IMG/VR virus record: IMGVR_UViG_3300033463_000015
From: a virus
Taxonomy: Duplodnaviria > Caudoviricetes
Reading direction: 5' to 3' (one strand)
Length of the DNA: 64,000 nucleotides
Below are positions 21,642 to 45,158 of this stretch, one piece after another. Positions within the stretch are counted from its first letter, which is position 1. Each line of letters opens with the position of its first letter. Position numbers and translations under genes: made by a program. The notes beneath the pieces are model-generated. The model was not told the origin of the DNA and made no database searches. It saw only the letters and a program-made list of their open reading frames with translations.

Positions 21642-22106
21642 GTGTTTGAGTGCTTTATTTTTAAGGCTGATAGGCTTTAAATTTTAAAAAAGTTGGTGGA
21701 ATTTGGGCACGCCCCCACAGTTAGTCTAAACTAACTTGGTTTTTTCCCGAAAGCTAGCCCCCGGGGCGCTGAAGCTGAAAGCTAGAGCTAGGATTCGATG
21801 GATCCGGCTCAAAAATTGTTACAAAAGTGTTACAAAATCGGGTGGGGTGTAGCAATTTTGACCTAATTCGCGGAGACGGGGGTGTGGTCATTTTAAAATT
21901 GAAAAAATTTTCCAAAACCACCCTGGGTTTTTCCGTGGGGTGCCCTTCGCCGCGGGACCCCCTGTCCCCATTTGAAAAATAGAAACGCGCAAGCGGGAGT
22001 TCCTCCACCGCAGGCACGGCCGCGGGGCCGCGAGCACCGGGGGATTATGGACCGGATCGGGAAAGTGGGCGCTTGTTAAAAATTTAACAAGCGCCTCCAC
22101 CGCGGT

Positions 22107-22570
22107 TACTTTAGCGCATTAAAGCGCTAAAGTAATTGTCTCTATTCTTGGATCCGGACGCGAGTTAGTTTAGACTAACTAACTCCTCAGCCTCCACCAT
22201 TCGCAGGAAAGACGTTAGCGCATTAAAGCGTTAAAGTCCGGATCCTTTAGTGCATTAAAGCGCTAAAGTGGGCGAAGGTCAAAGTCAGTCAAAGTCAGGA
22301 AACTTTAGCGCGTTAAAGTGTTAAAGTCCTCCACCTCTTTAGCACTTTAGTGCGCTAAAGTATCCTCCACCGCCGGGCGCACTTTAGCGCGTTAAAGTGC
22401 TAAAGGGAGGCGCGCTTTAGCGCGTTAAAGTGTTAAAGCGTCGCCGGATCTTTAATGCATTAAAGCGCGAAAGTCCGGAATTGACAAGAATTTAACAATC
22501 ACTTTAGCGCATTAAAGTATTGAAGTCGTTATGAAAGTATAACGACTTTAGCGCATTAAAGCGTTGAAGC
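22107..22570. repeat. Array of ~10 CTTTAG-N4-(C/T)TAAAG palindromes (HisR-like operators)
   Basis: Copies near 22107, 22214, 22245, 22301, 22343, 22380, 22413, 22450, 22500, 22544; most carry an extra half-site 9 bp on. Confidence 0.85.
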
Positions 22571-22655
22571 TAATTTGCGATTTTCAACTTCCGGTGTTTA
22601 AGAAAAAGTTAGCCTCCACTAACTGTTATGAAAATATAAGAAAAGGCCGCCGCCT

Positions 22656-23108
22656 TTAGGCGGTGGCCGCAAGGGCTTTCCGAAGGGACTTTTCGTTTAC
22701 AAGTTCCGCGCCGTCAAACTTGACTTGCACTTGTTCGCCGTTGATTTCGAGGTCTCCGGCAACCCAGAACGGAGTAGAGTTCTTTTCCCACGGCAGGCCG
22801 TTCATTTCCGCCGTGACCCGTTCGAAGTTGTCGCCCGTGTTGTGCTTCGGGTCAGCCGTGAGCAGGTCAGCCGTGCCGATAGCCTTGACCGCGCCCGCCG
22901 CGATCAGCGCCGCCTTGGTGGCCTTGTCGAAGCGGATGCGGATTTTCGCCGCGCCGCCGCGCTTGGTGCTTTCATGGTCAAGCCGCAGGGCCGCCGCCGG
23001 GATTTCAGCGAAGTAACCGCCGTAGAGGATACCGCGCAGGACGAAGCCGATATAGTAGATGGTGGCGGCGGTCAGTTCGGTGTAGTTGGTGAGCAGGTAG
23101 TTCATCAT
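22656..23108 (-). CDS. Family A protein (putative PD-(D/E)xK-like fold)
   Basis: Own promoter and RBS; paralog of 30307 and 31069; G..FE...GDL...QxK pattern. Confidence 0.85.
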   Translation of the reverse strand: MMNYLLTNYTELTAATIYYIGFVLRGILYGGYFAEIPAAALRLDHESTKRGGAAKIRIRFDKATKAALIAAGAVKAIGTADLLTADPKHNTGDNFERVTAEMNGLPWEKNSTPFWVAGDLEINGEQVQVKFDGAELVNEKSLRKALAATA

Positions 23109-23208
23109 GGTGGTGGTCCCCTTTCCTTTTCTTCGTCTCCATTATACAGCATGCCGGGCAACTTGTCAAGGGGTTTTTGAAACTTTTTTTCGGGATAGTG
23201 CGGCGGCA

Positions 23209-23427
23209 TCAGTCGCCGCACATATCCCACGCCCACAGGGTCAGCACCGGGACGGCTTCGCCGAGGACTTCCTCGGTAGCGGTGAGGTCGATGCCGTTTT
23301 CCACCGCCCACATGGTGAAGTCGTCGAAGTCCTCTTCATAGCACCGATACAGGGTCATTTCATAGTCAGCGGCATCGTCGAAGTCCTCGGTGGCGTAGAC
23401 GGTTTCGAAGTATTCGCGGATAGTCAT
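23209..23427 (-). CDS. Acidic hypothetical protein (72 aa)
   Basis: Own promoter, RBS, GC3-rich codons. Confidence 0.8.
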   Translation of the reverse strand: MTIREYFETVYATEDFDDAADYEMTLYRCYEEDFDDFTMWAVENGIDLTATEEVLGEAVPVLTLWAWDMCGD

Positions 23428-23584
23428 TTTTGAAGTCCCCCTTTTTTCTTCGGTATCTCTACCGTGACTAAAGTATAGCACATAACAGCCGGCCTGTCAA
23501 GCACTTTTTTCGCCACCGGGCAAATTTTTTTGCCCGGTCACCGGATCAGCGCCCAGGACCACCAGTAAAAGTCAAAGAAAGTCA

Positions 23585-23637
23585 AAAATAAAAATGTGCA
23601 TCCCTGCCGTAGGTCCGAAGGGTTTTCCCTTCATCTG
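23585..23637 (-). ncRNA. Candidate small RNA, family 1 copy 1
   Basis: Consensus promoter (23643-23671) with no RBS-led ORF; homologous to 29920-29972. Confidence 0.5.
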
Positions 23638-23820
23638 TGCCCATTATACACTATGCCGGCGGATTTGTCAAGTACTTTTTTCTCCGCAGGACTTGCGGCC
23701 GCAGGCTCTTACGCTTGCGTATCTGTGTGCTAATAAAGAATGATTAGCTTATGTCAATTACTCTTTAACCAGTGCAGCGAGTTAGTTATGACTAACCATA
23801 TTACTATAAAAAAAGAACCT

Positions 23821-24258
23821 TTACAGGTTCTTCAACACTTCCATAATATAGCAAGGTTCATAGGCTTTTCCGTTCTTCCATGCGTTGCGGTTCTGCTTTT
23901 CATCATCGAACAAAATAGCATCATCAGCACCACACACAGACCACTTATTCACGCCATACGACACAATCAGCACGTTATCAAAGCGGACACTTGCGAGATG
24001 CTTTGCAAGCCACGCACGCTTTGCGGCAATAACAGCATCGTCATAATCAGCGGTGCTATTCTTGCTCAACCAACTAATCACAATCAGCTTATGGCCTTGC
24101 GCTTGCAGACTGTTCAGCTTGCGCGCAAGCGCAGACAGATTGCACAGAGGCTTTGCGGCTTTATAAGGATAAGGGTCAGAAGCAAGCAGATAGTTAAGCC
24201 AATTGGCAACACCATACAGATTAGCAATGGTTCCGTCAAGGTCGAAGCAAATAGTCAT
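23821..24258 (-). CDS. HAD-family phosphatase (5'-nucleotidase-like)
   Basis: FDLDGTIA, IVISW and ILFDD motifs; paralog of 36925. Confidence 0.85.
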   Translation of the reverse strand: MTICFDLDGTIANLYGVANWLNYLLASDPYPYKAAKPLCNLSALARKLNSLQAQGHKLIVISWLSKNSTADYDDAVIAAKRAWLAKHLASVRFDNVLIVSYGVNKWSVCGADDAILFDDEKQNRNAWKNGKAYEPCYIMEVLKNL

Positions 24259-24528
24259 CAGTAGCACTTCCTTTCTTACAGCTTTATTATACAGGATAAA
24301 AAGCAAATTGTCAATAGGCAAATAAGAAAAAAAGGTATTGACATTCATACTCTTATGTGCTATACTTTAGTGGGAGAGTGAGATATATAGTTAGTTATGA
24401 CTAACTATTTTGCCGGCTTTATAGATCCGGAAGGAGTTAGTTATAACTAACTCATATTATCGGTCTCTCCTCCACCATCCCTATTATAAGCGATAATGTC
24501 AAGAATGTCAAGCCTTTTTCGCAGAAAG

Positions 24529-24580
24529 TTATCCACAGATTTATCCACAACAAGTCACCTTGTGGATAAAGTTATCCACA
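24529..24580. promoter_or_regulatory. Cluster of four perfect DnaA boxes
   Basis: TTATCCACA at 24529, 24541 and 24572; TGTGGATAA at 24561. Confidence 0.9.
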
Positions 24581-24656
24581 AGTATAAGATAAAGGAAAAG
24601 GGCTTTCGCCCTTTGTTATTTAGCCCAAGGATAGAATTCATGGCATGGAGGGCTTT

Positions 24657-24902
24657 TCAGCCCTCCAAAATCTCCTTGCGGGTTTCTTCATCCTGTCGCA
24701 GGAAGGTATAGAGCAAATGCTTATTATCTTTCACAGACGCGGGCACTTCCACGATGCAGCAATTTTTCTGCGCAACAGGCCGCATCATGTTATAATGCCG
24801 AATAGCGGTCATCTTGTTAACCCACACCATGCCATTATGAGCAAGGGTCAGCTCTCCGTGCCGCTGATGATTATAGCGCGCGATTGTCCACATAGTCTCC
24901 AT
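24657..24902 (-). CDS. Hypothetical protein (81 aa)
   Basis: Own promoter, GAGGAGG RBS. Confidence 0.8.
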   Translation of the reverse strand: METMWTIARYNHQRHGELTLAHNGMVWVNKMTAIRHYNMMRPVAQKNCCIVEVPASVKDNKHLLYTFLRQDEETRKEILEG

Positions 24903-24999
24903 TTTGTATCCTCCTCTTGTGGTGGCTTACGCCCTCCCCACAATCTTATTATAGCAGATTCGTCCGGTTTTGTCAAGCACTTTTTTCAGCCCGCGGCGG

Positions 25000-25176
25000 T
25001 TAGGCCGCGGGGTTTTCCACAGGAAGGCCATCCACCATGTCGGCGACCTCGCGGGCACGCTCGGCAGTATCATAGGCCCCGTAGAACCACAGGTCGCCCT
25101 CGACCTCACGGACAACCCACCAGCGGCGGCGGGCGGCGTAGGTGGGAACGTTGCGGACGGTTTCGATAGTCATCAT
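25000..25176 (-). CDS. Family D small protein (58 aa)
   Basis: MMTIETVRNVPTYA...WFYGAYDT; paralog of 27687 and 28471. Confidence 0.85.
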   Translation of the reverse strand: MMTIETVRNVPTYAARRRWWVVREVEGDLWFYGAYDTAERAREVADMVDGLPVENPAA

Positions 25177-25443
25177 TTTTGTGGCCTCCGGTTTTTGTAT
25201 TCGGTATCTCTACCGTGATTAGAATATACCACAGATCAGCCGATTTGTCAATAGGTTTTTTCGATTTTTTTCGACTTTTTTTTGATGAGTAGAAAATTGC
25301 CCCCGCGGGTCATCCTCCACAAACCCAGACTCCAAGCGCGCCGGATCCACCCCACAAACCGAGGTTTTATGCGATCCGGATCCAGGCCTCGCAGGTGGTG
25401 GTGGAGGGCTTTTCAGCCCTCCACCGGCCGCAGGCCGCAGGCT

Positions 25444-25626
25444 TTACGCCTGCAGGCCGAGGGCCTTGGCCTGCCGCAGGACGTCCCGCTTGGCCTCGGC
25501 CGCAGCGTTCTTCTCGCGACGCCACACAGTGTAGTCATCGGCCATTTCGGCGAGGAAGTCGGCCTCGGCGATTTCGGCAAGGGCTTTGCGGAGGTCTTCC
25601 GCGGTGTTGATGGTGTAGTGCTTCAT
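25444..25626 (-). CDS. Hypothetical protein (60 aa)
   Basis: Own promoter and RBS. Confidence 0.8.
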   Translation of the reverse strand: MKHYTINTAEDLRKALAEIAEADFLAEMADDYTVWRREKNAAAEAKRDVLRQAKALGLQA

Positions 25627-25720
25627 TTTGAAGCCCCCTTTCCTTTTCTGTGATTAAAGTATAGCACGATTTGCCGGTTTTGTCAAGTACTTTTTGAAAA
25701 ATTTTTTTCGGCGGGGAGGG

Positions 25721-25855
25721 TCAGCCCTCGGGCTGACCCTCCTCGGCCTTGGCCTCCTCGGCCTCGGCCTCGCGCTCGAGCGCGTCGAGCATCGCGTCGA
25801 TGAGGAGGTCGCGGGCGCGGCCGTGGGGGTTCGGGGTGGTGTAGGTGATAGTCAT
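25721..25855 (-). CDS. Small protein with acidic C-terminus (44 aa)
   Basis: AAGGAGG RBS, own promoter; MTITYTTPNPHG...EAEAEEAKAEEG. Confidence 0.7.
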   Translation of the reverse strand: MTITYTTPNPHGRARDLLIDAMLDALEREAEAEEAKAEEGQPEG

Positions 25856-26044
25856 CGTGGTGACCCTCCTTCGTTCTTTCTGAGGCTATTATAGCACAGG
25901 CCGGGCAGGTTGTCAAGCCCTTTTTTTGATTTTTTCAAAAATTTTTTTCGCCGCAGGAATCGTGATGAATCCATAACGAAAATACCCCAGTTAGTTATAA
26001 CTAACTCGCCGAATCCAGATCCGGACAAAAAGGGGAGGAGGGCG

Positions 26045-26158
26045 TCAGCCCTCCTCCTCAGTCTCCTCCTCGGCCTCCCGCTCGGCCTCCTCGGCCAGCT
26101 CCCGCCGAAGCTCTTCCATCCCGAAGTAGCGGTCCTCGTACACTTCCCAATCCAGCAT
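26045..26158 (-). CDS. Very acidic small protein (37 aa)
   Basis: AAGGAGG RBS, own promoter; MLDWEVYEDRYFGMEELRRELAEEAEREAEEETEEEG. Confidence 0.7.
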   Translation of the reverse strand: MLDWEVYEDRYFGMEELRRELAEEAEREAEEETEEEG

Positions 26159-26250
26159 TGCGGTGTCCTCCTTTTCTTTCGGGGTTCCTCCCCGTGACTA
26201 TATGATAGCACAGCCGGCGGGATTTGTCAAGAGGTTTGGAGGACTTTTTT

Positions 26251-26391
26251 TCAAGTCCCCCAAACCTCCTCATTCGTCTCCTCCACATAGATGCAAGCAT
26301 CATCATCAAAGCCACACAGCACAATCACCGCATCCTCGTCATACTTCGCCAGCAGTTCCCGCAGTTCCTGAACCGTCATCTTCGTTGCCAT
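26251..26391 (-). CDS. Family E small protein (46 aa)
   Basis: Near-identical to 27939-28079. Confidence 0.85.
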   Translation of the reverse strand: MATKMTVQELRELLAKYDEDAVIVLCGFDDDACIYVEETNEEVWGT

Positions 26392-26502
26392 TTTTGTAGC
26401 CTCCTTTTCTCTTTCCCCTTGGTACAGTCTCATTATAGCACCGATTGCGGGATTTGTCAAGCCCTTTTTGAAACTTTTTTTCGGCCGGACAGGAAGACCG
26501 CT

Positions 26503-26709
26503 TTAGCGGTCTCCCCATTCCTCCTCACTCACGTCCCACACGTAGACGTTGCCCTCCACCTCCAGCCAGAAGCACAGCACGCCATCCGCGTCCTCATCGA
26601 GCCAGCCCTCGGCCGTGGTAGCCTTCTGGATACCAAGCGCATAGCCACCCCACACAGCACCCGTAAGCAAAACCACAACCACGACCACGATTGCCACTTT
26701 TTTACCCAT
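26503..26709 (-). CDS. Small membrane-anchored protein (68 aa)
   Basis: N-terminal hydrophobic helix, own promoter. Confidence 0.8.
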   Translation of the reverse strand: MGKKVAIVVVVVVLLTGAVWGGYALGIQKATTAEGWLDEDADGVLCFWLEVEGNVYVWDVSEEEWGDR

Positions 26710-26796
26710 TTTGAAATCCTCACTTTCTGCCCTATCGGGGCACTTTCATTGTATCACATCACGCGCCGCTTGTCAAGAGGTTTTGCGCCCGCGGCC

Positions 26797-26958
26797 TTAG
26801 CCGCGGGGCACGGTGACGCGGGCCACCACCTTGCGCACCTCCCACACCTTGCCGCTCAGCGCGGTGCGGACGCGCGCGGCCTCCACGGCCTTAGCCTCGG
26901 TCATATAGACCTCGCCGCCGATGAGGTTGCCACAGTAGATACGGAAGTAAGTCAGCAT
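26797..26958 (-). CDS. Hypothetical protein (53 aa)
   Basis: Own promoter and RBS. Confidence 0.75.
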   Translation of the reverse strand: MLTYFRIYCGNLIGGEVYMTEAKAVEAARVRTALSGKVWEVRKVVARVTVPRG

Positions 26959-27029
26959 TTGGATTGCCCCTTTCTCTTGGTGTGATTTTATTATAGCATA
27001 GGTGAAACGATTTGTCAAGAGGTTTTTTC

Positions 27030-27220
27030 GCGGTGGAGGTGGGAAAGCCTACTCTACCTCTCTACGGAGTTACCCTCGGCTACTGTGGGTGCCCTCTTCC
27101 TCGCCCCTCCACCACTTCCCGCGGCGGGGCTACCTCCGCGGGCGTGTAGCGTGTTTTTTGCGGCCCTCGCACGTCAGCCTTGCGGCTGTGGCTTTAGGTG
27201 TGCTACCCTCACCCTCTGAC
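27030..27220 (-). ncRNA. Candidate structured RNA (~190 nt)
   Basis: Promoter at 27224-27252; GC-rich hairpins (CAGCC-GCAA-GGCTG, CCCGCGG/CCGCGGG); no RBS-led ORF seen. Confidence 0.45.
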
Positions 27221-27420
27221 AGTATATTACCACAGACCGCCCCGAATGTCAAGCCCTTTTTGAAATTTTGTCCCGGAAATTTTTTCGGCCGCAGGAAGCC
27301 CAGGCGCTTTAGCGCATTAAAGTGTGAGGATCCGGCGACCGGTTAGTCCAGGCTAACTCTGCCGGCACGCGGGTTTTTTATGACTAACCGCATTGTTATA
27401 AAAAAAGAACGGGTTTGACC

Positions 27421-27594
27421 TCACAGGTCAAACCCGAAGTTGTCCTCCGCGCGGGCGCCGTCCACGAGGGCGCGGTACTCGGCGATGGTCTCGGCGGTCT
27501 CGCCGCGCTCGGCCATGTTGAAAGCCTCCACGGTGTGGGGGTCTTCAAGTCCCCAGTTGGTAGCGATGGCGTCCAGAATCTCGTTCACGGTCAT
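27421..27594 (-). CDS. Hypothetical protein (57 aa)
   Basis: AAGGAGGT RBS, own promoter. Confidence 0.8.
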   Translation of the reverse strand: MTVNEILDAIATNWGLEDPHTVEAFNMAERGETAETIAEYRALVDGARAEDNFGFDL

Positions 27595-27686
27595 TTTGAT
27601 GACCTCCTTTCTATGGTTAGAGTATAGCACAGGTTGTCCGGTTTGTCAATAGGTTTTTGAAACTTTTTTCGCCGATGGTGGAGGTC

Positions 27687-27857
27687 TTAGAAGACCTCCA
27701 CCGCGAGGCCGTCCACCATCGCGGCCACCTCGCGAGCGCGGGCGAGCGTGTCATACGCGCCATAGAACCAGTATTCGCCATCCACCTCGCGCACCACCCA
27801 GCAGGGATGACCGTAGGCGTAGGTCGGGACGTTGCGGACTTCTTCGATGTTCAGCAT
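27687..27857 (-). CDS. Family D small protein (56 aa)
   Basis: Paralog of 25000-25176. Confidence 0.85.
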   Translation of the reverse strand: MLNIEEVRNVPTYAYGHPCWVVREVDGEYWFYGAYDTLARAREVAAMVDGLAVEVF

Positions 27858-27938
27858 TTGCGTTTCCTCCTTGCTTCTCTTTACAGTCTTATTATAGCGC
27901 ATTGCGGCCGGTTTGTCAAGGGGGTTGGGAAACTTTTT

Positions 27939-28079
27939 TCAAGTCCCCCAGACCTCTTCATTCGTCTCTTCTACATAGATACAGGCGTCATCATCGAAAC
28001 CGCACAGCACCACGACCGTATCGCCATCATACTTCGCCAGCAGTTCCATCAGTTCCTGAACCGTCATCTTCTTCGTCAT
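27939..28079 (-). CDS. Family E small protein (46 aa)
   Basis: Near-identical to 26251-26391. Confidence 0.85.
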   Translation of the reverse strand: MTKKMTVQELMELLAKYDGDTVVVLCGFDDDACIYVEETNEEVWGT

Positions 28080-28179
28080 TTTCGTTTCCTCCTCTGTGTA
28101 GGACTCTTGCCCTTTCCACGGTCTTATTGTAGCACATCCCATCCGGTTTGTCAAGAGGTTTTTTTGTTTTGCGGCTTGT

Positions 28180-28277
28180 TTTTTTTTGGCCTCACCTGCG
28201 GGGACCGCGTTCGCAATTCCACACCCGCAAGGTTCATCGGCCTTACTCTACTCCATTGGCCTATCCCCTTTCCACGG
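28180..28277 (-). other. Amber minigene + hairpin element, copy 1 (ATG-GAG-TAG)
   Basis: Own promoter, AAGGGG RBS, ATG 28256, TAG 28250-28248; homologous to 37602-37700. Confidence 0.6.
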
Positions 28278-28470
28278 TCTCATTGTATCACAAGTTAGCC
28301 GATTTGTCAAGCTCTTTTTGCAAGTTTTTCAAAAACTTTTTTCGGCCGAGCACCAGGACAACATACCCCGATTAGTTATAACTAATCGCCGATCCGGATC
28401 AGTTAGTCATAACTAACTTTTGTGCCGGCATAAAAAACGGCGCCGGTGGATCCGGCGCCGGGGTGGAGGC

Positions 28471-29706: not shown

Positions 29707-29919
29707 AGTGGTGGCCTCCTGTTCTTTTCTACGGTCTCATTATAGCACAAGACCCGGCTATTGTCAAGCCCTTTTTTTAATTTCCCTATGCCTGGGCCGC
29801 AACCTCCACCGCCAGGCACCGCCGAGTCCTGGCCCAGGGCCGCCCCGGCAAAACCGCCGGCGAAAAAATTTTTTTTCAAAAACCCCTTGACAAATCCGCA
29901 AAGTGTGGTATACTATACT

Positions 29920-29972
29920 CAGATGAGGGACAGAGAGCCGTCGGACCCACGGCGAGGCTGCCTATCTTTTTT
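29920..29972 (+). ncRNA. Candidate small RNA, family 1 copy 2
   Basis: Promoter TTGACA...TGgTATACT at 29887-29914, hairpin and T-tract. Confidence 0.5.
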
Positions 29973-30012
29973 GAAAGTCAAAGAAAATCAAATTTTCTTG
30001 GATCCGGATCCC

Positions 30013-30088
30013 AGTTAGTTATGACTAACCGAGTTAGTTGAGACTAACTAGAGTTAGTTATGACTAACCGAGTTAGTTACCGCTAACT
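30013..30088. repeat. Four tandem AGTTAG-N6-CTAAC palindromes at the transcription divergence point
   Basis: Copies at 30013, 30032, 30052 and 30071. Confidence 0.9.
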
Positions 30089-30306
30089 ATTTTGCCGGCA
30101 TTGCCTCGCCTGGCGAGGTACCTCACGTGCCGAGGTACCTCACGCTTTAGCGCACTAAAGTGTGAAAGTGTTACGAAAGTGTTACGGAAGTATTACGAAA
30201 AGTTCATAGAATCTTAACAGAATCTTAACAAAAAAGGGCTTGACAAAACTGGCCGGAGGGCTTATAATCTAAGCGTACCAAGGGAAAAGAAAAGGAGGCC
30301 ACCCCG

Positions 30307-34019: not shown

Positions 34020-34020
34020 A

Positions 34021-36467: not shown

Positions 36468-36641
36468 ATGTTCAAGATTGAGTATGAGTACAATGGCCGC
36501 ACTATGACTTTCGATTTCATTTTCCATAGCTTTTGGGCCGCAAGCCTTAAGGCGCGTGACATCTCTAACGCCTTCCACACCAACGCCTATGTGTACAACC
36601 TTCACACGGGCGTCTATGTGGCGCATTACTGGGGCGATTGA
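36468..36641 (+). CDS. Hypothetical protein (57 aa)
   Basis: Promoter, GGAGG RBS. Confidence 0.7.
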   Translation: MFKIEYEYNGRTMTFDFIFHSFWAASLKARDISNAFHTNAYVYNLHTGVYVAHYWGD

Positions 36642-36723
36642 CCCAGTTTTGCCGGCGCAAAAGTTAGGCTTGACTAACTCCTGGGTTTCGTGATACAATA
36701 AGGGTGAAAGGAAGGTGCTAAGA

Positions 36724-36861
36724 ATGAAGGTTTATCTCCGTAATTGCAAAGGACAGCAGACAATCCGTGAACTGAAACTGAGTCAAATTGTACGCATTTG
36801 GTTGTATCAAATGGTTCACGTGCGGAAAGAAGAGCGTTGCATTATGAAAATTCTTTTCTAA
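36724..36861 (+). CDS. Hypothetical protein (45 aa)
   Basis: Promoter and RBS. Confidence 0.55.
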   Translation: MKVYLRNCKGQQTIRELKLSQIVRIWLYQMVHVRKEERCIMKILF

Positions 36862-36924
36862 AAACTCTTGACAAAACTCAAATCATCGTGTATAATAAAA
36901 ATACTCCAAGAGGGAGTAGAAAGG

Positions 36925-37362
36925 ATGACAACGATGACGATTTGGTTCGATATGGATGGCACGATTGCTGACCTCTATGGCGTGGATGGATGGCTTGACA
37001 ACCTCATCAACGAGAACACCCGCCCCTATGATGAAGCGAAGCCGCTTGTGAACATGGCACACCTTGCGCGGCTTCTCCACAAGGCGCAGGCGAATGGTTA
37101 TGAAATCGGTATCATCTCGTGGACTTCCCGCGGTGGCTCTGACCTCTACAATGGCGAGGTTGCCCTTGCTAAAATGGTATGGCTTCATAAGCATCTGCCC
37201 TCTGTGGAATGGGATGCCATCAAGATTGTGGCCTATGGCACGAACAAGCGCACCGCGTGTGGTGGTGGCATCCTGTTCGATGACGAAGAGCCGAACCGCA
37301 AGGCGTGGGGCGAAGGTGCTTTCACCCCTGACGAAATCATCCGCGTGCTGAAGGGTATCTAA
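36925..37362 (+). CDS. HAD-family phosphatase
   Basis: FDMDGTIA, ILFDDE; paralog of 23821. Confidence 0.85.
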   Translation: MTTMTIWFDMDGTIADLYGVDGWLDNLINENTRPYDEAKPLVNMAHLARLLHKAQANGYEIGIISWTSRGGSDLYNGEVALAKMVWLHKHLPSVEWDAIKIVAYGTNKRTACGGGILFDDEEPNRKAWGEGAFTPDEIIRVLKGI

Positions 37363-37601
37363 TTACCCTTTTTTCGTGCCGGCGCGGCAGTTAGTTATGA
37401 CTATATAACGAATCAGCCCTGGCGATTGTCAAAAATTTGTCAAAGAAAATTTGAAAAAATGCTTGACAGAAATCAAAATTGGAGTATAATTAATATTGTC
37501 AGGAGGGGACAGGGACACCACCCACGGAGGGCAAACCTCCGAGGCCGAAAAAAGTTCCGCGACCTCTTGACAGAGCGTCACACCCTGTGCTATAATAGGA
37601 C

Positions 37602-37700
37602 TGTAAGAAGGAGATGATACCCTTGGAGTAGAGAAAGGCCGCTAGCCGCGGATGGTGCGGAATTGCCAAAGCGCTTCCCTACCGCGTAGGCCGCAAAGAA
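37602..37700 (+). other. Amber minigene + hairpin element, copy 2 (TTG-GAG-TAG)
   Basis: Own promoter, AAGGAG RBS, TTG 37623 (or in-frame ATG 37614), TAG 37629-37631. Confidence 0.6.
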
Positions 37701-37828
37701 GAGCGCAAAATTTCCTCCGAAAAACCCTTGACAAACACCACAGGATGTGGTACAATAAAGATGTTCCAAGAGGGAACACGAAAACGATCGGGAAGGAAAA
37801 CCCAACCAAACCAGAAAGGATGTGCCCT

Positions 37829-38161
37829 ATGAAGGTTTCCACTCTGTCCGCTGTGTACAATGCCCTGACCAACTACGGCTATGCCGATGAGACCGTGATG
37901 GCTGACCTGTACGCCGAGATTCACAAGGGCGACAAGGTCAAGGCCGAAAAGGCCGCGCTGTATGAGGATGCCAAGCCCATCGTCTTCGGCGTCTTCGCCC
38001 TGACTGACAAGCCCCTGACCGTGGCTGAGATTTGGGAGAACATCGAGGGCAATGTCCCCGAGGGCTTCACCAAGTCCAAGCTGTCTTACGCCCTGACCCA
38101 CAACTGGGCCGATGAGGTCGTGAAGGTCACGGGCAAGACCAACGCCTACACCAAGGCGTGA
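37829..38161 (+). CDS. Family B protein
   Basis: LTVAEIWENIEGNVPEGFTKSKLSYALTHNW. Confidence 0.85.
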   Translation: MKVSTLSAVYNALTNYGYADETVMADLYAEIHKGDKVKAEKAALYEDAKPIVFGVFALTDKPLTVAEIWENIEGNVPEGFTKSKLSYALTHNWADEVVKVTGKTNAYTKA

Positions 38162-38196
38162 CCCTCTATGGGAGGGCGCAAGCCCTCCCACCTCTT

Positions 38197-38271
38197 ACCC
38201 CATTGGCTCAATGGTAGAGCAACTGACTCTTAATCAGTGGGTTGCGGGTTCGAGTCCCGTGTGGGGTACCA
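38197..38271 (+). tRNA. tRNA-Lys(CTT)
   Basis: Acceptor ACCCCAT/GTGGGGT, anticodon arm ACTGA-CTCTTAA-TCAGT, GGTTCGAGTCC T-arm, encoded CCA. Confidence 0.95.
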
Positions 38272-38517
38272 GTGCCGCCTTAGGTGCGGCTTTTTATTTA
38301 TCGCAAAATTAGTTATATAGTTATAACTAACTCGCGGCCGGCACAAAATTAGGCTTGACTAACCAGGAGTTATGTGTTATAATAAGGGTGTCAAGAGGGA
38401 GAGAACCCCACCGCAAAAGGATGAGCGGGTGGCCCCGATTGGGTGGCGGACTCCAAAAAAGTCTTGACAAAAATCAAAAATTGATGTATAATGTAGAGGA
38501 AGAAAGGGGAAGAGACT

Positions 38518-38763
38518 ATGACTAATGTGTATGTGCTCACCAACGAAACCGATGGCAATTCTGTGATTGGCGTCTACTCCACGATGAAGAAGGCCATCAA
38601 TGCCCTCTTCAACGCCGCGGAGACCCTTGAGGTCGTTAGCTCTTGTATGGAGTCTGTGGGCGTGCGCTTCGTGTTCCTCGCGGGGACTGTCCCTGTGCGC
38701 TACTACATCGAAGAGGTCGAACTCGATGAGACCCTCTTCCTGCAGAAGAGCGACCTCTATTGA
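38518..38763 (+). CDS. Hypothetical protein (81 aa)
   Basis: Promoter and RBS. Confidence 0.8.
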   Translation: MTNVYVLTNETDGNSVIGVYSTMKKAINALFNAAETLEVVSSCMESVGVRFVFLAGTVPVRYYIEEVELDETLFLQKSDLY

Positions 38764-38772
38764 TAAGGAGCG

Positions 38773-39213
38773 ATGAAGATGACCAAACTTCAAGCAGTCC
38801 GCAAGTTTGCTAATGCTGTGGCACAGCAGAAGGTTGTCATTGCGCGCAATCACATCACCAAAAATTGGGCAATGTCACAGGATGAATTGCGTATGCTCAC
38901 GCCCACGAATTTCAACTATGAACCCGATGAAGGTGATGAAGCCTTCCGCATCGACTTTACCCATCGGTATGCCCCCGCTAATGAATTGATGGACATCACC
39001 ATCACTATTCTCCACGAAATCGGTCACTATTTTACCCGCTTTGACTATGATGCGGATGAAGATTACCACTTACGGCGTGCGGCCGCGAATATGAGTGAAT
39101 ATCTCCGCATTCCGTGTGAGCGTCTCGCTACTGATTGGGCGATTGCGTGGCTTCATGACCTTGAGCATTGGGCCATTGCTAAGCAATTTGAAGCGGACTT
39201 TATGGGTAAGTAA
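38773..39213 (+). CDS. Zincin-like metallopeptidase (ImmA/IrrE-like)
   Basis: ILHEIGH followed by E..A..WA. Confidence 0.7.
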   Translation: MKMTKLQAVRKFANAVAQQKVVIARNHITKNWAMSQDELRMLTPTNFNYEPDEGDEAFRIDFTHRYAPANELMDITITILHEIGHYFTRFDYDADEDYHLRRAAANMSEYLRIPCERLATDWAIAWLHDLEHWAIAKQFEADFMGK

Positions 39214-39354
39214 TTGCCCATATTTTCTGCCGGCGCGCTTGTGAAAAACTTAACAAAGAAAAATGCACAAAGCCCTTGACAATCACAAACCGATGGTGTA
39301 TAATCTAACTGTAATCAAGGGAAGGACACCCTACAAACCGAAAGGAGAATCTCT

Positions 39355-39708
39355 ATGGCGAAGATGAGCAAGCCTCAGGTGGATGCAGAACTGCGGGCGC
39401 GTGTGTTCAATGACCTCATCGAAGGTGCGGATACTGCTCTCCAGTATTGGCACATCAACGACCGCCAGTATGGCGCTCTGCTGAAGGACGCGAATGGCGA
39501 ACAGCGGTATGTCCGTATCGGTGTCATCGTGGCGGAACAGCGCGAGGATATGACTGCCGAGGAACTGATGGAGTCCGAGGTCAATGCGTATCGCGCCAAG
39601 CAGGAGGCCAAGGCCGAAAAGGCCAAGGCCAAAGAGGAAAAGATTGCCCGCGACAAAGCGCGGCGCGAGGCCAAGGAAAAGGAGGCGCAGGAAAATGTCG
39701 AAGGATGA
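39355..39708 (+). CDS. Family C protein
   Basis: Similar to 32574-32963. Confidence 0.85.
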   Translation: MAKMSKPQVDAELRARVFNDLIEGADTALQYWHINDRQYGALLKDANGEQRYVRIGVIVAEQREDMTAEELMESEVNAYRAKQEAKAEKAKAKEEKIARDKARREAKEKEAQENVEG

Positions 39709-39883
39709 GATGGTTTGCCCCAAGTGCGGGAGCGAGGACTATGAGATTGGGGACTACGGCGAGAACTTCAACGATGAAGACTACTACTCCCGTTGGTGGC
39801 TCTGTCGTTGCGGAAAGTGCGGCTACTGCTATGAGGTGGAAAAGATTTACAATCTTGTCCGCACTCTGGTGAATGGGAACTAA
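39695..39883 (+). CDS. Zn-ribbon protein (62 aa)
   Basis: CPKCG...CGKCG. Confidence 0.8.
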   Translation: MSKDEMVCPKCGSEDYEIGDYGENFNDEDYYSRWWLCRCGKCGYCYEVEKIYNLVRTLVNGN

Positions 39884-39994
39884 TGTTCCCATTCGCCGCC
39901 GGCAAATTAGGCTTGACTAACTCGTCAAGATGGTATATAATAAGGGTGAAAATAAGGAAAGGAAAATCCTAAACACCAGAAAGGATGATGAAGT

Positions 39995-40234
39995 ATGAAC
40001 CCGAATCGCCCTATCATTTGCAACATTCACAACTATGAGGATATGAGCGTTGAGGAAATCAATGCTCTGATTGACGGACTGTGTGGTCTGCGGCAGAATA
40101 AGCTTTCTGAAACAGCAGATAAGCACGCAGAGAGATTGAGCAATCTCATTTGCGACATTATGGACGATGGCTTTGTAGTCTATTGTAATGGAAACCAAAT
40201 TGAGCCTTGTGACCTTGATGTGCGTATTGATTAA
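39995..40234 (+). CDS. Hypothetical protein (79 aa)
   Basis: Promoter, RBS, downstream hairpin. Confidence 0.8.
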   Translation: MNPNRPIICNIHNYEDMSVEEINALIDGLCGLRQNKLSETADKHAERLSNLICDIMDDGFVVYCNGNQIEPCDLDVRID

Positions 40235-40344
40235 GGGGTAATAAATTACCCCTTATTTTCGCCGGCAAGAAAATTAGGCTTGACTAACTATCTGTCTTAT
40301 GATATAATCAAACTGTAAAAAGAAATAATCAAGGAGGAATCACG

Positions 40345-40620
40345 ATGGACGAATTTGAGATAAGTATGCGCATTGCTGAACTGGAAGACGAACTTGACCA
40401 GTTGCGTCTTGAAAATGACTCTTTGCGCCAGCGGCTTTGCGACAAGAAGTATCGGTATCAAATGATTACGGTATATGGCCAAGCCAGCAAGGTCGAAAGG
40501 AGCAACGACATTTCTATCTTGCTTCAAGCCGCATCCATCTATCTGTACGACCGCGACTGTACTATGCTTTCTATCTATGATTTCAAGGAAGGCCGCGACA
40601 TCTTTAACTACAGCCGTTAA
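40345..40620 (+). CDS. Hypothetical coiled-coil protein (91 aa)
   Basis: Promoter, AGGAGG RBS. Confidence 0.8.
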   Translation: MDEFEISMRIAELEDELDQLRLENDSLRQRLCDKKYRYQMITVYGQASKVERSNDISILLQAASIYLYDRDCTMLSIYDFKEGRDIFNYSR

Positions 40621-40695
40621 GGTGCCGGCCAAAAATTAGGCTTGACTAACTACCCTCTGTGTGATACAATAGGGGTGTAGAAAGGAAGGATGACA

Positions 40696-40845
40696 ATGTT
40701 CCGCAAAGTGTGTGCCGCTCTCGGCGCTATCCTGTTGGCTATGGGTCTCCTGTGGGGCGCGTTCAATCACGCATGGCTGTGGGCAGTCCTTCCCGCATTC
40801 ATCCTGATGGCTATCGGTAGCATTAAAATTACCGATGACGAATAA
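40696..40845 (+). CDS. Small two-helix membrane protein (49 aa)
   Basis: Promoter, RBS, two hydrophobic segments. Confidence 0.7.
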   Translation: MFRKVCAALGAILLAMGLLWGAFNHAWLWAVLPAFILMAIGSIKITDDE

Positions 40846-40911
40846 AACCTCTTGACAAACCCCTCCCCATATGCTATAATAAGAGCGTACCAAACGAAAG
40901 GAGCGAACAAA

Positions 40912-41202
40912 ATGCGCGACATCAAGAACGGCACCTACAATGGCAATATGACCTTCTGCCCTGTGAACTGTTGGAACGAGGACGATTGCCCCTATGCCCA
41001 CGAGGGTATCTGCCACATCGATGACCCCGTGGAGGATTGCGATGACTTCGCCGCGTTCTTCCCCTCTTGGGAAGACTGGGAAGACGCGGACGATGTTGAC
41101 CCCGATGCTCCCACGGACTTCTCGCAGGAAGAAATGTGGTGGGCCACGCAGACCTTCGGTTTCAATACTGAAGAAGCAAGAGAGGATGATGACGATGCTT
41201 GA
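40912..41202 (+). CDS. Cys-rich acidic protein (96 aa)
   Basis: Five Cys in the N-terminal half, acidic tail; AAGGAG RBS. Confidence 0.8.
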   Translation: MRDIKNGTYNGNMTFCPVNCWNEDDCPYAHEGICHIDDPVEDCDDFAAFFPSWEDWEDADDVDPDAPTDFSQEEMWWATQTFGFNTEEAREDDDDA

Positions 41203-41547
41203 TACCTTTGTTGTACTGTGCCAGATTCTCTTTATCATTGCTATCATCGTTCATAATATGAACGGAAATAGGGGTAAGTAATTACCCTTATTTTTCGCCG
41301 GCGCGATTGTTAAAAACTTAACAATCCTAATTTTGAAAAAACACTTGACATATCCCAAATTTGCGGTATAATAGAATTGTTCCAAGGGACACCACCCACA
41401 CCCCAGTTGCCAAGTCGCGGTTCAAACTCAAAAAAAGTTTGCGAAACCCCTTGACAAGCACCCCAAAGTGTGGTACAATGAGAATGTCCCAAGGGACAAG
41501 AAAAAGAAAAGACAAGGCCAGTCTCAAAAACCAGAAAGGGTAACCAC

Positions 41548-41883
41548 ATGAAGCGCAACACCATCCAGTCTCTCGTTTCCTTCCTCAATGGCGAGACCGT
41601 GACCAACCTCGACGAGATCAAGGCCGAACTCGAGGCCGAACTGAACAAGGGCGCGGTCGCCAAGGCCGAGAAGGACGCGGGCTATGAGGCCGCGTGGGAC
41701 ATCGTCCGCAGTGTCTTCGCCCTAACCACGGCTCCCCTGACCGTGGCGGAAATCTTCGAGCAGGTCGAGGAGACCCTGCCCGAGGGCTTCACCAAGGGCA
41801 AGGTGCAGTATGGCCTCACTCACCAGTGGGCTGACCGCGTGGTGAAGATTGAGGGCAAGCCCAACACCTACCGCCTCGCGTGA
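41548..41883 (+). CDS. Family B protein
   Basis: Paralog of 31874. Confidence 0.85.
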   Translation: MKRNTIQSLVSFLNGETVTNLDEIKAELEAELNKGAVAKAEKDAGYEAAWDIVRSVFALTTAPLTVAEIFEQVEETLPEGFTKGKVQYGLTHQWADRVVKIEGKPNTYRLA

Positions 41884-42029
41884 GGCGGGGAGGGCTTCGG
41901 CCCTCTTTTCTTTTGGGCGCAAGTTAGTCGTGACTAACTGGCCGGCACGAAATTTTTTTAAAAAGGTATTGACAAAAAGATTCCTTTGGCTTATAATAAA
42001 GGTGTTCCAAGAGAAAAGGAGGATGAAGT

Positions 42030-42349: not shown

Positions 42350-42778
42350 ATGACCACCATCGAGACCATTCGTGACATCACCGTGACCGCTAAAGTTGCC
42401 AATCGCATTGCACAGGAAACGAAAGCAGAACTCGCGCGGCTCAAGCTTGAAAAGGCCACCATCGAATTCTGCGAAAACTATGTTGAAGCCGAAATTTTGA
42501 ACGCGGCAACCGAAGGAATTGGTTGCGTTTATCTGCCCACGTTTGGTAGGATGCAGTATAGTGATGCTGATGAATGGTATCCTTTGAAGACTGATACTTA
42601 CCGCTATGCCAATGGTGATGAGTCTCTTGTTCCTGACCAGACTAAACCCGCGATTAGTATTGCGTATCTTACCAATTATCTTGAACATCGCGGTTTCACT
42701 GTCACGGTTGAGAAAAGGTATTATATGCAGTATAGTTGGGGTCAGCAGAAGGGACACCGCATCCGCATCTCTTGGTAA
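42350..42778 (+). CDS. Hypothetical protein (142 aa)
   Basis: Promoter, RBS, terminator; I..AA..G...ISW pattern shared with 45916, 50170, 50406. Confidence 0.8.
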   Translation: MTTIETIRDITVTAKVANRIAQETKAELARLKLEKATIEFCENYVEAEILNAATEGIGCVYLPTFGRMQYSDADEWYPLKTDTYRYANGDESLVPDQTKPAISIAYLTNYLEHRGFTVTVEKRYYMQYSWGQQKGHRIRISW

Positions 42779-42815
42779 GGGTAGGAAACTACCCTTTTTT
42801 TCGTGCCGGCAAGTT

Positions 42816-43262
42816 TTACATAGACTTGCACGACCATTCATACTGGCGACCATTGATAGACTGAAGCGTTTCAAACGCCATCGCCACATAGGTGAAGAAC
42901 TTATTGCGCGCACCCTTCAACGTGTTCACATTCATACAGCGGAAGTGGTCATTGCCGCGATGTTCCATATTGCAGTTAGCATCATACATAGACCGCACAT
43001 ATGCTTCAATGAACAGCCTATCAGCGTGCGTCCCTTCAAACTCAACATACAGATCAATAGGCGTATCCACAGTATACTTGCGGCCATCAAGATTCTTTGA
43101 CTCTCCAATCTTAATGGTGGCATCCATTTCAAAATAATTCTTGGCTTCCATTTCAGTATACTCATTCGCGCGGTCAAGATACCACTGCTTTGCCTGTTTG
43201 AAGTTCTGCCAACCATATCCATCGGTGTAGTAAGTTGCAAAGTAAATGTAGCTCAGTTCCAT
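42816..43262 (-). CDS. Possible GIY-YIG/T5orf172-like protein
   Basis: YIYFA...IKIGES.NLDGR...LFIE pattern; own promoter and AGGAGG. Confidence 0.55.
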   Translation of the reverse strand: MELSYIYFATYYTDGYGWQNFKQAKQWYLDRANEYTEMEAKNYFEMDATIKIGESKNLDGRKYTVDTPIDLYVEFEGTHADRLFIEAYVRSMYDANCNMEHRGNDHFRCMNVNTLKGARNKFFTYVAMAFETLQSINGRQYEWSCKSM

Positions 43263-43582
43263 TATGATGCCCTCCTTTATTTCGCGCCTTTCAGCATCTT
43301 TATTGTATCGCTTTTCCTAGCTTTTGTCAATAGGTTTTTGAAAAAAATTTTTATGCCGGCATAAAAAATCGTGCCGGCAAAATTCTGCCGGCGCCACAAG
43401 ATACTCTCCCACCTCTACCATATTATCACAAAGTTGTCAAGTTGTCAAGCCCCAAAGTGTTACAATTGTGTTAAGATTTTGTTACAAAATTATGACGCAG
43501 CCTTGTCAAGTGTTTGACCTGTGTCAAGTGCTTACCGGCTTCCAAATTCTGCCAACCGGATCCTTATATTATAATATAGCGC

Positions 43583-43747
43583 CAGGGAGCTGGGAAAGGC
43601 CATAGGAGCTGGGAGCTGGGCCCGTGGGAGCTGGGACTAAAGGAGCTGGGAACTGCCCCGGCGACCGGAGGGAGCTGGGGAGCTGGGAATGGATCCGGCA
43701 GCTGGAAAATTTTTCCAACGCGCCAGGGAGCTGGGTCAAGGAGCTGG
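43583..43747 (+). repeat. Polar GGAGCTGG short-repeat cluster
   Basis: About 11 units in one orientation. Confidence 0.8.
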
Positions 43748-43769
43748 AAATAAAAAAAGAAGGCCAGCA

Positions 43770-45158
43770 TCAGCTGGCCTTCTTTAATCCTACGATCCGG
43801 TATTGCTTTATATGAGCACGCCCATACTTGCGTTCTTCAAATTCTATCTCGTCTCCCCATTCTTTTGTTACAGCCTACCACGTCAGGAGCTGCTTTGTAA
43901 ATGTCTTATCATAGACAACATAAGTCTATAGTAATTCTTTTATCTCATCCTTATTATGCCAAGTATAGTAGCAAGCTGAAAAGTGCCCATCTTCTCGCAC
44001 AAACTCTACCAGCATTTTTGCCGCAGATAAAATATACTTACGCTCGGGCGCATAACGCGCTCTAATAAATTGACCAATATCCATATAATTACGAGAGTTG
44101 CAAATCCAATCTTGGAACCGTGTATCATAAATATCTATGCCGCGGCCCGCGACCTAATTGGTTATAACGCAATCATATTCTGGCGGAACCATATGATGTT
44201 CATTAATATACTTTAATCCTTCACGCTGCTTATCAGTAACGCAGCCACGCCAATCAGGATTATTCTCGAACGACCATAGCGTTAAGACGTGAAAGCCCTT
44301 TGCCGCAAACTACTCTTGCAGCCGCATAATATCAGTAACACGTTCTGTATATATCCAGGGGCACATATTCTTATCAGGACATATCAAACCATCGTTAAGA
44401 GCTGCAGAAACACTTTCAATAAAGACAGTTTCTTTGGCGTCATAGATTTCATCAATCTTGCCGCGCATAATATAATTAATATAATCACCGAACAAAGAAG
44501 CTGCTATCTCTGGAGTAGCAGACATCGCGATTAAACGTATTCGTGCGGGCTCCAATATAATAGTATGAATACTATAGATAAAAGCTGCAATAGAAGTGTG
44601 GCGGCCTTCCTATAAAAGGTTAGCAAGCTTCTCTTCTTTTAGATCCGGGAACGTCTTCTTGACTTGCCGGATCTCAGCTTCATAGTATTGCTGCACATCA
44701 TCAAACTCATCCCATACAATTAAATCTATATCATCTAACCATTCGGTATCACGTCGTATAAGAGCTGCAAAAGTTTGATAGCACATTATGTGTATCTTGT
44801 CGCTATCATCCTCCACCGTCCATACGCGTTTCTATCTATGTGCCAGCCAGCCATCTAAGTCTGTATCAGCAAACACTGTAGTAATATCTGGATAGCGCAG
44901 ATGAATATTATCGCGCAGCACCATTGTGTGGACAAGATATACTATATGTTTTTTCGCACGCGAAAAGCTGAGGATGCGCGGATCAAAACTAAAAGTAGTC
45001 TTGCCACATCCCCTCGGTGCTTTCAGCACATTAAATTGTCCTGGCTAGATACGCTCTAAATCTTCTGCCTATATAATAGAAGATAAGAACTACTAGTGCT
45101 CTATCGGTTGATGCGCGCTTACCTACGTAAGCGGCATGGTAATAATTTCCTGTCCCAT
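43770..45158 (-). CDS. SF2 helicase-like protein, putative origin-binding protein (462 aa, TAG=Gln)
   Basis: Three fragments in frame: Walker A APRGCGKTT, Walker B IVWDEFD, motif III AMSAT. Confidence 0.8.

Follow-up and report, generated by a model that had tools for sequence, protein, structure and literature searches.

Why should the DNA between the early genes of a large phage be crowded with short repeats that read like the operators of bacterial metabolic regulators? This question is raised by the virus record IMGVR_UViG_3300033463_000015 of IMG/VR (Duplodnaviria; Caudoviricetes), analysed here as a stretch of 64,000 nucleotides (the window). A first-pass annotation made from the sequence alone had listed seven repeated intergenic motifs in the early region, matched them to host regulators and interpreted the whole as a sponge of DNA that titrates host transcription factors. 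Of these motif families, six are real and far above chance; the seventh, an ARG-box-like pair, is not. The sites are conserved in related phages and are identical to native host operators. We infer that host proteins bind them, with regulation, timing or derepression as the selected consequence. In the mixed model that we favour, and to which we give about an even chance of being correct, promoter-linked sites would regulate early promoters and promoter-less arrays would act as sinks for host regulators. The region concerned is the following:

21700..43800, both strands: early region, ~45 small genes in two divergent arms, 42% non-coding (9.4 kb)

This is the part of the phage genome that is transcribed by host RNA polymerase. 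It contains ~55 near-consensus sigma-A promoters (TTGACA-17-TATAAT), many of them with an extended -10 element. One arm is encoded on the minus strand (22.6-29.8 kb) and the other on the plus strand (30.2-42.8 kb).

Repeated motifs in the early region

Motif enrichment was assessed against 300 first-order Markov simulations of 21,700-43,800. The palindrome GTTAG-N6-CTAAC, reported earlier in ~27 copies, is present 21 times exactly and 28 times with at most one mismatch (simulated mean 0.02). For YACTTTA-N6-TAAAGTR, the reported ~12 copies correspond to the core CTTTA-N6-TAAAG (11 copies; simulated mean 0.01) and not to the strict form, which has 3 exact copies and 8 with at most one mismatch. 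The other four counts agree with the first-pass annotation. TTGTTAA-N4-TTAACAA, described as three perfect sites and four variants, has 3 exact copies, 1 one-mismatch hybrid with the general Rex half-site and 3 looser variants. The three copies of RGTCAAA-N3-RGTCAAA comprise 2 exact and 1 one-mismatch repeat (1 exact and 2 near when the spacer is restricted to NAN). The TGTTAC-type direct repeats form three clusters (21,817, 30,169-30,196 and 43,458-43,485), and TTATCCACA is present in 4 copies within 52 bp (24,529-24,580). For each of these six families, simulated sequences of equal dinucleotide make-up contain essentially zero copies. All hits fall in the 9.4 kb of non-coding DNA of the early region, and the remaining 41.9 kb of the window contains zero exact copies.

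The tandem ARG-box-like pair did not hold up. Tandem 18-bp palindromes of the ARG box (ArgR/AhrC) are not above chance, with 6 hits at up to 2 mismatches window-wide (3.3 expected; equalled in 16 of 100 shuffles) and a single hit inside the early region. The identification of the motifs as host operators stands for the MntR-like, HisR and Rex families and fails for the ARG box. Eleven other Firmicutes operators are not enriched (CIRCE, LexA, cre, CodY, Fur, PerR, Zur, parS, NrdR, 0A box and TnrA), which indicates that the region does not match operators in general. Chance as the source of the six families is rejected by the simulations and this control panel.

MntR-like operators

GTTAG-N6-CTAAC was originally put down as a weaker match to a DtxR/MntR-type repressor, yet it is the best supported of all the assignments. 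An 18-mer form of the palindrome was scanned against 185,579 prokaryote species (one genome each) and matched at least 120 bacterial loci. Among the matches listed, almost all are from Bacillota (Lachnospiraceae, Oscillospiraceae, Erysipelotrichaceae, Anaeroplasma and others). In the same set, 118 of 121 sites are intergenic, many of them immediately 3' of a -10 box and shortly ahead of a ribosome-binding site. Among the 110 proteins encoded alongside are ABC exporters (10), DUF3793 proteins (9), ZIP proteins (7), DtxR-family repressors (7), FeoB (4), flavodoxin (3), Nramp (2) and FeoA (2), and the adjoining regulators are MntR-like proteins of 124-129 amino acids. Another 37 GTTAG-N6-CTAAC sites, which differ in the centre, are present in the 872 kb of listed bacterial loci (~1 expected). 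Native operators in tandem are spaced 20-36 bp apart, and one Oscillospiraceae genome has three of them ahead of feoA and feoB. In bacteria, the motif is found beside metal-uptake genes (feoAB, ZIP and Nramp) and genes for MntR-like regulators, as the first-pass annotation had anticipated for feo and mnt. GTTAG-N6-CTAAC is thus best explained as the operator type of a host MntR-like (DtxR-family) metal sensor, binding of which is predicted from the sequence match.

Of 81 Clostridia genomes, 37 contain the motif with flanking A/T, each in 1-9 copies, compared with 21-28 copies in the window and 41 in the related locus L003. A single phage genome therefore has 2-10 times the MntR-like operators of a host chromosome. 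A hairpin or terminator origin of the palindrome was considered and rejected, as the arms are invariant, the centres are variable and often non-palindromic, and no T-run follows. The sites in the window are as follows:

21720, 22164, 22608: MntR-like palindromes in the left gene-free block
23781, 24390, 24436, 25990, 27342, 28402 (23781..28417): dispersed MntR-like sites of the minus arm, most with GCCGGC 3-7 bp away
30014..30087: tandem array of four perfect-armed MntR-like operators, 19-20 bp period
30931, 31576, 32989, 34180, 34208, 34875, 41923 (30931..41938): dispersed MntR-like sites of the plus arm, between a terminator and the next promoter
33020, 36404, 36663, 38348, 39906, 40273, 40635 (33020..40650), plus strand: seven MntR-like sites over a -35 element

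In the last group, the centre and right arm of the palindrome contain the -35 hexamer of an early promoter, and five of the seven sites have the imperfect left arm ATTAG. The site at 36663 is identical in sequence to an operator in a Clostridia genome.

Three side observations concern this family. Most MntR-like palindromes have GCCGGC at a distance of 3-7 bp, in many cases flanked by a palindrome on either side, and the two together form a conserved composite junction element. At 24338-24511, two consensus promoters converge over ~120 bp that contain two MntR-like operators and no open reading frame (ORF), with DnaA boxes adjoining. In L003, positions 439-1330 are gene-free and carry ~40 MntR-like operators at a 20-bp period with GTCAAAG repeats interleaved; this array ends in four tandem DnaA boxes ahead of a promoter.

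HisR-type operators

The Firmicutes HisR consensus, cacTTTA-N6-TAAAgtg, has been validated with the Ruminococcus gnavus protein (PMC9413887). R. gnavus has three HisR sites, and members of the regulon include hisX-type and yuiF-type genes (PMC9413887). The match claimed for the window is exact: the site at 22,380 agrees with the consensus at all 14 specified positions. The sites are distributed as follows:

22103..22569, plus strand: HisR-type array of ten tripartite units, each CTTTA-N6-TAAAG with a third half-site 8 bp further on
27305..27324, plus strand: single HisR-type operator, ~55 bp upstream of the -35 of the minus-strand promoter 27224-27252
30143..30162, plus strand: single HisR-type operator, upstream region of promoter P30240

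The third half-site is shared with native operators. This tripartite form was found in 8 of 61 Clostridia genomes searched, and five of the native sites are directly upstream of SBP_bac_3 (hisX-type) or Na_H_antiporter (yuiF-type) genes. These similarities support the identification of the CTTTA-N6-TAAAG units as operators of the HisR (TrpR-family) type, with HisR binding predicted. The window has eleven such sites, ten of them within 470 bp, versus three in R. gnavus. The array is located in a block that lacks promoters, and Pfam detects no his-family gene among the 20 largest early proteins.

Rex-like sites and winged-helix paralogs

TTGTTAA-N4-TTAACAA is the clostridial Rex consensus, established by DNA affinity purification sequencing and electrophoretic mobility shift assays in Clostridium thermocellum (PMC8457756). 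The three exact copies in the window match this published consensus in full, and Rex is probably the host regulator for the sites. The relevant features are:

22073, 22481: Rex-like palindromes in the left gene-free block
31601..31618: palindrome with the Rex consensus, 20 bp from the -35 of a downstream 16-bp-spacer promoter
34233, 37426, 39239, 41307: Rex-like equivalents of the 31601 site, two perfect or hybrid and two variants
31874-32206 (plus strand), 34482-34811, 37829-38161, 41548-41883: four winged-helix paralogs of 110 amino acids

Between each promoter-linked site and the -35 that follows are 19-20 bp, and the promoters concerned form a class with a 16-bp spacer. Promoters of this class are found ahead of the four winged-helix paralog genes, an arrangement that is retained in relatives L001-L003. 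Each paralog gene is preceded by its own Rex-like variant and by tandem promoters, which makes phage autoregulation through the Rex-like motif possible. In the predicted fold, the 110-residue proteins have a long helix and, C-terminal to it, a winged helix (predicted local distance difference test score 90.7). Structure matches are weak and include Z-alpha, MarR-like, Fur-family and forkhead DNA-binding domains (E-values 0.02-0.2). Based on this model, the paralogs are candidate phage DNA-binding proteins.

The 16-bp-spacer promoters also give rise to short non-coding leaders that all start with GTCAGG(A/T)(A/G)GG (31667-31790, 34298-34370, 37491-37560 and 32406-32490). The leaders are 5' of the second promoter and the paralog genes and had no match in an Rfam scan; they may be small RNAs.

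DnaA boxes, CtsR-like repeats and TGTTAC-type repeats

The DnaA box is universal, and the repeat TTATCCACA corresponds to it. Several consensus 9-mers are clustered in the window, and the cluster is conserved in relatives: in L003, four tandem DnaA boxes are located 12 bp upstream of a -35. DnaA is probably the host protein that recognizes these boxes. The GTCAAA repeats resemble RGTCAAA-NAN-RGTCAAA, which we take to be the CtsR consensus, and the TGTTAC-type repeats resemble what is presumably the WalR/OmpR consensus. CtsR and an OmpR-type response regulator are possibly the host binders of these two repeat types. Features of this group are:

24529..24580: four perfect DnaA boxes within 52 bp, beginning 17 bp upstream of the -35 of the minus-strand promoter 24483-24511
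23570..23586, plus strand: CtsR-like heptad direct repeat, inside a short non-coding transcript from promoter P23671
22277, 29976: weaker CtsR-like copies

The 17-mer CtsR-like sequence of the window is found three times in L003 and recurs in L009 and L098; no clp genes are located near the CtsR-like repeats. Most relatives also have TGTTAC-type repeats, again at an 11-bp period.

Gene-free blocks and unassigned repeats

The first-pass annotation had stated that many sites follow terminators or lie in gene-free blocks. This description is accurate: the arrays are in gene-free blocks, and plus-arm sites are located between a terminator and a promoter. Three such blocks are present:

21700..22640: left gene-free block; three MntR-like and two Rex-like sites, the HisR array, GTCAAA repeat at 22277, TGTTAC repeat at 21817
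29780..30240: central gene-free block, where the arms diverge; GTCAAA repeat at 29976, two GGATCC, four MntR-like sites and one HisR-type site, plus three TGTTAC-type repeats with 11-bp spacing at 30169-30196
43340..43800: right gene-free block; three GCCGGC, TGTTAC-type repeats at 43458-43485 and ~12 units of the GGAGCTGG type at 43575-43750

In the left block (21.7-22.64 kb), no promoter-like site was detected even at a lax threshold, and the block is closed by a terminator. It is syntenic with a block of L001 in which the operators align, the spacers have diverged and the HisR units number 4-5 rather than 10. Conserved operators, diverged spacers and the higher unit number suggest that the sites are under selection and that the array expanded recently.

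The early region also contains repeat families beyond those first listed (GCCGGC, GGATCC and GGAGCTGGG arrays). GCCGGC has 35 copies at 22-44 kb of the window and is also found in L003, L005, L007-L009 and L011 (as GGCCGGCC in L009). GGATCC has 15 copies at 21800-43700, often as CCGGATCC or doubled; it is enriched in the non-coding DNA of this phage and not in that of relatives. Arrays of GGAGCTGG-type or GGGAGCT-type units are located at 43575-43750 and 30780-30960 of the window and in L005-L011; for the GGAGCTGG-type units, no matching regulator could be named. Seven relatives, among them those whose junction palindromes differ, have conserved AGCTGG arrays, which may be a clade-wide border signal.

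Genome organization and gene content

In the phage to which the window belongs, TAG is an amino-acid codon. The flanks (1-21637 and 43770-64000) have a GC content of 32-42% and are readable only with this code, which yields long ORFs of 2,398 amino acids (minus strand, 1-7,195) and 1,497 amino acids (59,510-64,000). Between 21.7 and 43.8 kb, the GC content is 50-57% and the standard genetic code suffices. The genome is thus sharply bimodal in both code and composition. An assembly chimera is an unlikely source of the GC-rich block, because independent relatives have the same layout.

Terminator, palindrome, GCCGGC and promoter follow one another in a stereotyped order that is repeated ~45 times. 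Junctions of a terminator hairpin followed by an early promoter thus recur between small genes, as in the promoter-stem-loop (PeSL) cassettes discussed below. Several early gene families are paralogous, which is compatible with duplication of promoter-terminator cassettes. An Rfam scan for known RNA families recovered only the tRNA. Other features of the early region are:

22656-23108, 30307-30753, 31069-31521: three paralogous proteins of 150 amino acids, family unassigned
23821-24258, 36934-37362: two paralogous NT5C/HAD-like nucleotidases
25000-25176, 27687-27857, 28471-28638: three paralogous proteins of ~56 amino acids
33109-33762, 35659-36375: two paralogous DnaQ-like exonuclease-related proteins (phrog_20187)
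38197-38271: tRNA-Lys gene (anticodon CTT), directly 3' of a winged-helix paralog gene

Relatives and the search for cognate regulators

A search of deposited phages for close relatives of the window found none. An IMG/VR search with the four-paralog family of 110-residue early proteins identified twelve related loci, whose proteins are 36-55% identical. Two of the source records are complete (~179 kb). One of these, the 179.6-kb relative G001, closes as a circle and has the motifs confined to its early block at 10-35 kb.

The amplified operator varies among relatives. MntR-like operators are present ~40 times in L003 and Rex-like sites ~10 times in L004, and HisR-like units are found in the window, L001 and L009. 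In L004, L006 and L010, nearly all early promoters have a different palindrome, whose centre is exactly 22 bp upstream of that of the -35. The L006/L010-type palindrome was tried as a Clostridia operator and rejected, with an occurrence in 1 of 401 genomes searched. Its rarity suggests either that the hosts are outside the sample or that a phage protein binds in those lineages.

Searches for phage-encoded cognate regulators were largely negative. Pfam and PHROGs detected none among the 20 largest early proteins, and the two complete relatives have no Pfam-detectable TrpR, DtxR, Rex, CtsR or DnaA-type domain. Both of these relatives encode a generic MarR-like winged helix-turn-helix protein of 122-124 amino acids outside the early block, a homolog of which was not found in the window. 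This protein aside, phage-encoded cognate regulators were rejected within the scope of these searches (the 20 largest early proteins and the two complete relatives). The earlier statement that the window has no recognizable cognate regulator agrees with the database searches of the 20 largest early proteins, with the qualification that the four winged-helix paralogs are present.

As a side observation, contigs C68, C77 and C91 of an Acutalibacteraceae metagenome-assembled genome (G009) hold nearly all of its 77 GTTAG-N6-CTAAC sites, and L098 has the promoter and GCCGGC pattern. L098 and these contigs look like related phage contigs binned with the Acutalibacteraceae genome, which gives a weak hint of an Acutalibacteraceae host.

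Proposed model and alternatives

In the mixed model, the repeats are binding sites for host regulators, placed in the DNA that is first transcribed by host RNA polymerase. These regulators would include an MntR-like sensor of the DtxR family and HisR. Rex and DnaA are probable further members of the set; CtsR and an OmpR-type response regulator are possible ones. The promoter-linked class would comprise the seven MntR-like sites over a -35, the Rex-like sites 19-20 bp upstream of a -35 and the four DnaA boxes abutting a promoter, and would put subsets of early promoters under the control of host metal, redox and replication status. The promoter-less class would comprise the ten HisR-type operators at 22.1-22.6 kb, the four MntR-like operators at 30.0-30.1 kb and the larger arrays of relatives, acting as high-capacity sinks for the same host proteins. 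The Rex-like, DnaA and seven MntR-like sites keep a fixed position relative to promoters, which indicates cis-regulation and argues that at least part of the system controls early promoters through host sensors. The HisR and MntR-like arrays have more sites than the host regulon and no target in cis; this is not the case for the promoter-linked sites. A sponge function for the promoter-less arrays is a fair and, given the site numbers, physically plausible reading. Because one phage genome exceeds the host chromosome in sites, replication would have to pull the repressor off host and phage operators alike. More tentatively, these arrays may represent a protein-free form of takeover, in which the DNA would soak up HisR and the MntR-like repressor (Rex, CtsR and DnaA less so) and switch on host histidine supply and iron and manganese uptake, with related phages amplifying operators suited to their hosts.

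Several observations weigh against the mixed model. About half of the repeat families (GCCGGC, GGATCC, GGAGCTGG and others) are matched to no protein. The Rex-like sites do not overlap promoters but are near -64, which is atypical for a repressor, and their two arms are not both conserved at orthologous sites, the right arms being degenerate in L001-L003. The four winged-helix paralogs of the phage, and the MarR-like protein of its relatives, could bind some of the motifs. L006, L010 and L004 carry 15-25 copies of palindromes other than those of the window; a search of 401 Clostridia genomes for the L006/L010 type found it in only 1. Separately, the CtsR and WalR matches proposed by the first-pass annotation involve few sites.

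Could titration alone account for the whole library, as was first proposed? All sites would then titrate host repressors and DnaA, derepressing histidine supply, metal uptake, redox metabolism and chaperones, and effects on phage promoters would be incidental. Multicopy operators do derepress regulons in the laboratory, as in the Fur titration assay. Gene-free, promoter-less arrays of the kind required are present (ten HisR-type operators here, ~40 MntR-like in L003 and ~10 Rex-like in L004). The operators in arrays are perfect-armed while most of those over a -35 have one imperfect arm, and the amplified operator differs by relative, as would be expected if arrays were tuned to the host. Sites also outnumber host regulons (1-10 MntR-like sites in hosts; three HisR sites in R. 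gnavus, PMC9413887), and decoy arrays are known to reshape transcription-factor responses (PMC3322331). Titration has no need, however, for the fixed geometry of the Rex-like, DnaA and seven MntR-like sites or of the junction palindromes of L004, L006 and L010, and the Rex, CtsR and DnaA sites (1-7) would be too few to out-compete host sites before replication. As a complete explanation, titration is rather unlikely.

In L004, L006 and L010, the constant spacing between lineage-specific palindromes and the -35 speaks for binding by phage proteins (the Clostridia search, which covered the L006/L010 type, found it in 1 of 401 genomes). The sites would then be the phage's own early-to-middle switch, operated by the four winged-helix paralogs or a MarR-like protein, and their identity with host operators would come from mimicry, competition or descent. 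The Rex-like variant upstream of each paralog gene is consistent with autoregulation, and the MarR-like protein is conserved in both complete relatives. It is nevertheless improbable that phage proteins explain the sites, since three independent motif families match native operators in arms, spacer, tandem spacing and third half-site, Pfam finds no TrpR, DtxR or Rex fold in the relatives and the winged-helix matches are weak (E-values 0.02-0.2). The gene-free blocks might instead be signals for DNA transactions, with host proteins clamping the borders of the early block as an injection stop, origin or insulator. The blocks are indeed at the left border, centre and right border of the early region, the DnaA boxes of L003 are beside arrays and seven relatives share conserved AGCTGG arrays at a border. 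A parallel is offered by T5 and its relatives, in which the injection-stop locus carries conserved untranslated repeats with 8 DnaA boxes (bioRxiv 10.1101/866236). Entry in stages would also make sense for a phage with late genes that depend on an altered code. This explanation has a similarly small chance of being correct: the assembly of the complete relative is circular with the early block internal, the dominant block motif varies among relatives while the T5 regions are strictly conserved, and most sites are dispersed between genes, away from the borders. Finally, functionless operators could have been multiplied by cassette duplication after capture of host promoter-operator DNA, for which the junction repeated ~45 times, the several paralogous gene families and the PeSL precedent (PMC2839356, PMC4122927) speak. 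Such hitch-hiking is very improbable, as operator arms are conserved where spacers and centres have diverged (window versus L001; relatives with 36-55% identical proteins), and promoter-less tandem arrays are not cassette junctions.

Comparison with known systems and significance

To our knowledge, phages described so far carry no more than a few host-regulator sites, and these serve one or two proteins, such as Spo0A on phi29 and DtxR at tox. The tox operator of corynephage beta is repressed by host DtxR. It resembles the seven sites over a -35 described here in that a DtxR-family host repressor acts on a phage-borne promoter through an operator over the core promoter. It differs in being one operator for one cargo gene in a temperate phage, whereas dozens are found here in the early region of an apparently virulent, TAG-recoded phage. 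Titration of repressors by multicopy operators is familiar from the Fur titration assay and, for DnaA, from the datA locus. In these cases, as in decoy arrays built in yeast (PMC3322331), many high-affinity sites without a target in cis sequester a regulator and shift its regulon, which is the physical basis of a sponge; the examples are, however, laboratory tools, a chromosomal locus and synthetic constructs.

The virulent Bacillus phages phi29 and Nf carry host Spo0A boxes and parS sites (PMC2731898). They are likewise lytic Firmicutes phages in which host-regulator sites at early promoters couple development to the state of the host (PMC2731898). Their sites are few, serve one or two proteins and are all linked to promoters or the origin, whereas this phage has 21-28 putative metal-sensor sites, an array of ten HisR-type operators, more regulator motifs and promoter-less arrays. 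CtrA-binding sites on phages of Alphaproteobacteria also serve a host global regulator and apparently time the lytic programme (PMC9437464), but involve a single regulator in another phylum and no arrays. The first-step-transfer DNA of T5-like phages has untranslated repeat regions with DnaA boxes (bioRxiv 10.1101/866236). As here, gene-free blocks with direct and inverted repeats and clustered DnaA boxes are located amid (pre-)early genes and are conserved among relatives. The T5 regions are in a terminal repeat and have a strict order, whereas here composition varies and host metabolic regulators can be named for most motifs. In the PeSL cassettes of T4-type phages (PMC2839356, PMC4122927), small early genes are also bracketed by a terminator hairpin and an early promoter, repeatedly and with signs of cassette duplication. 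No host-regulator operators have been described in them, in contrast to the host-type palindrome and GCCGGC between terminator and promoter here.

No naturally occurring sponge of phage DNA that titrates host transcription factors emerged from a full-text literature search, and a set of host operators on this scale in a phage early region has not been described before. A clade of large TAG-recoded rumen phages has an early region built around dozens of native-type operators for several host sensors. The operator repertoire is a sequence-based clue to the host of uncultured phages. If host proteins bind these sites, the phages would read the metal, histidine and redox state of the host before commitment or would reprogramme host regulons by means of DNA alone. 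Such DNA-only reprogramming, if true, would be a new route of host takeover that is invisible to gene-based annotation.

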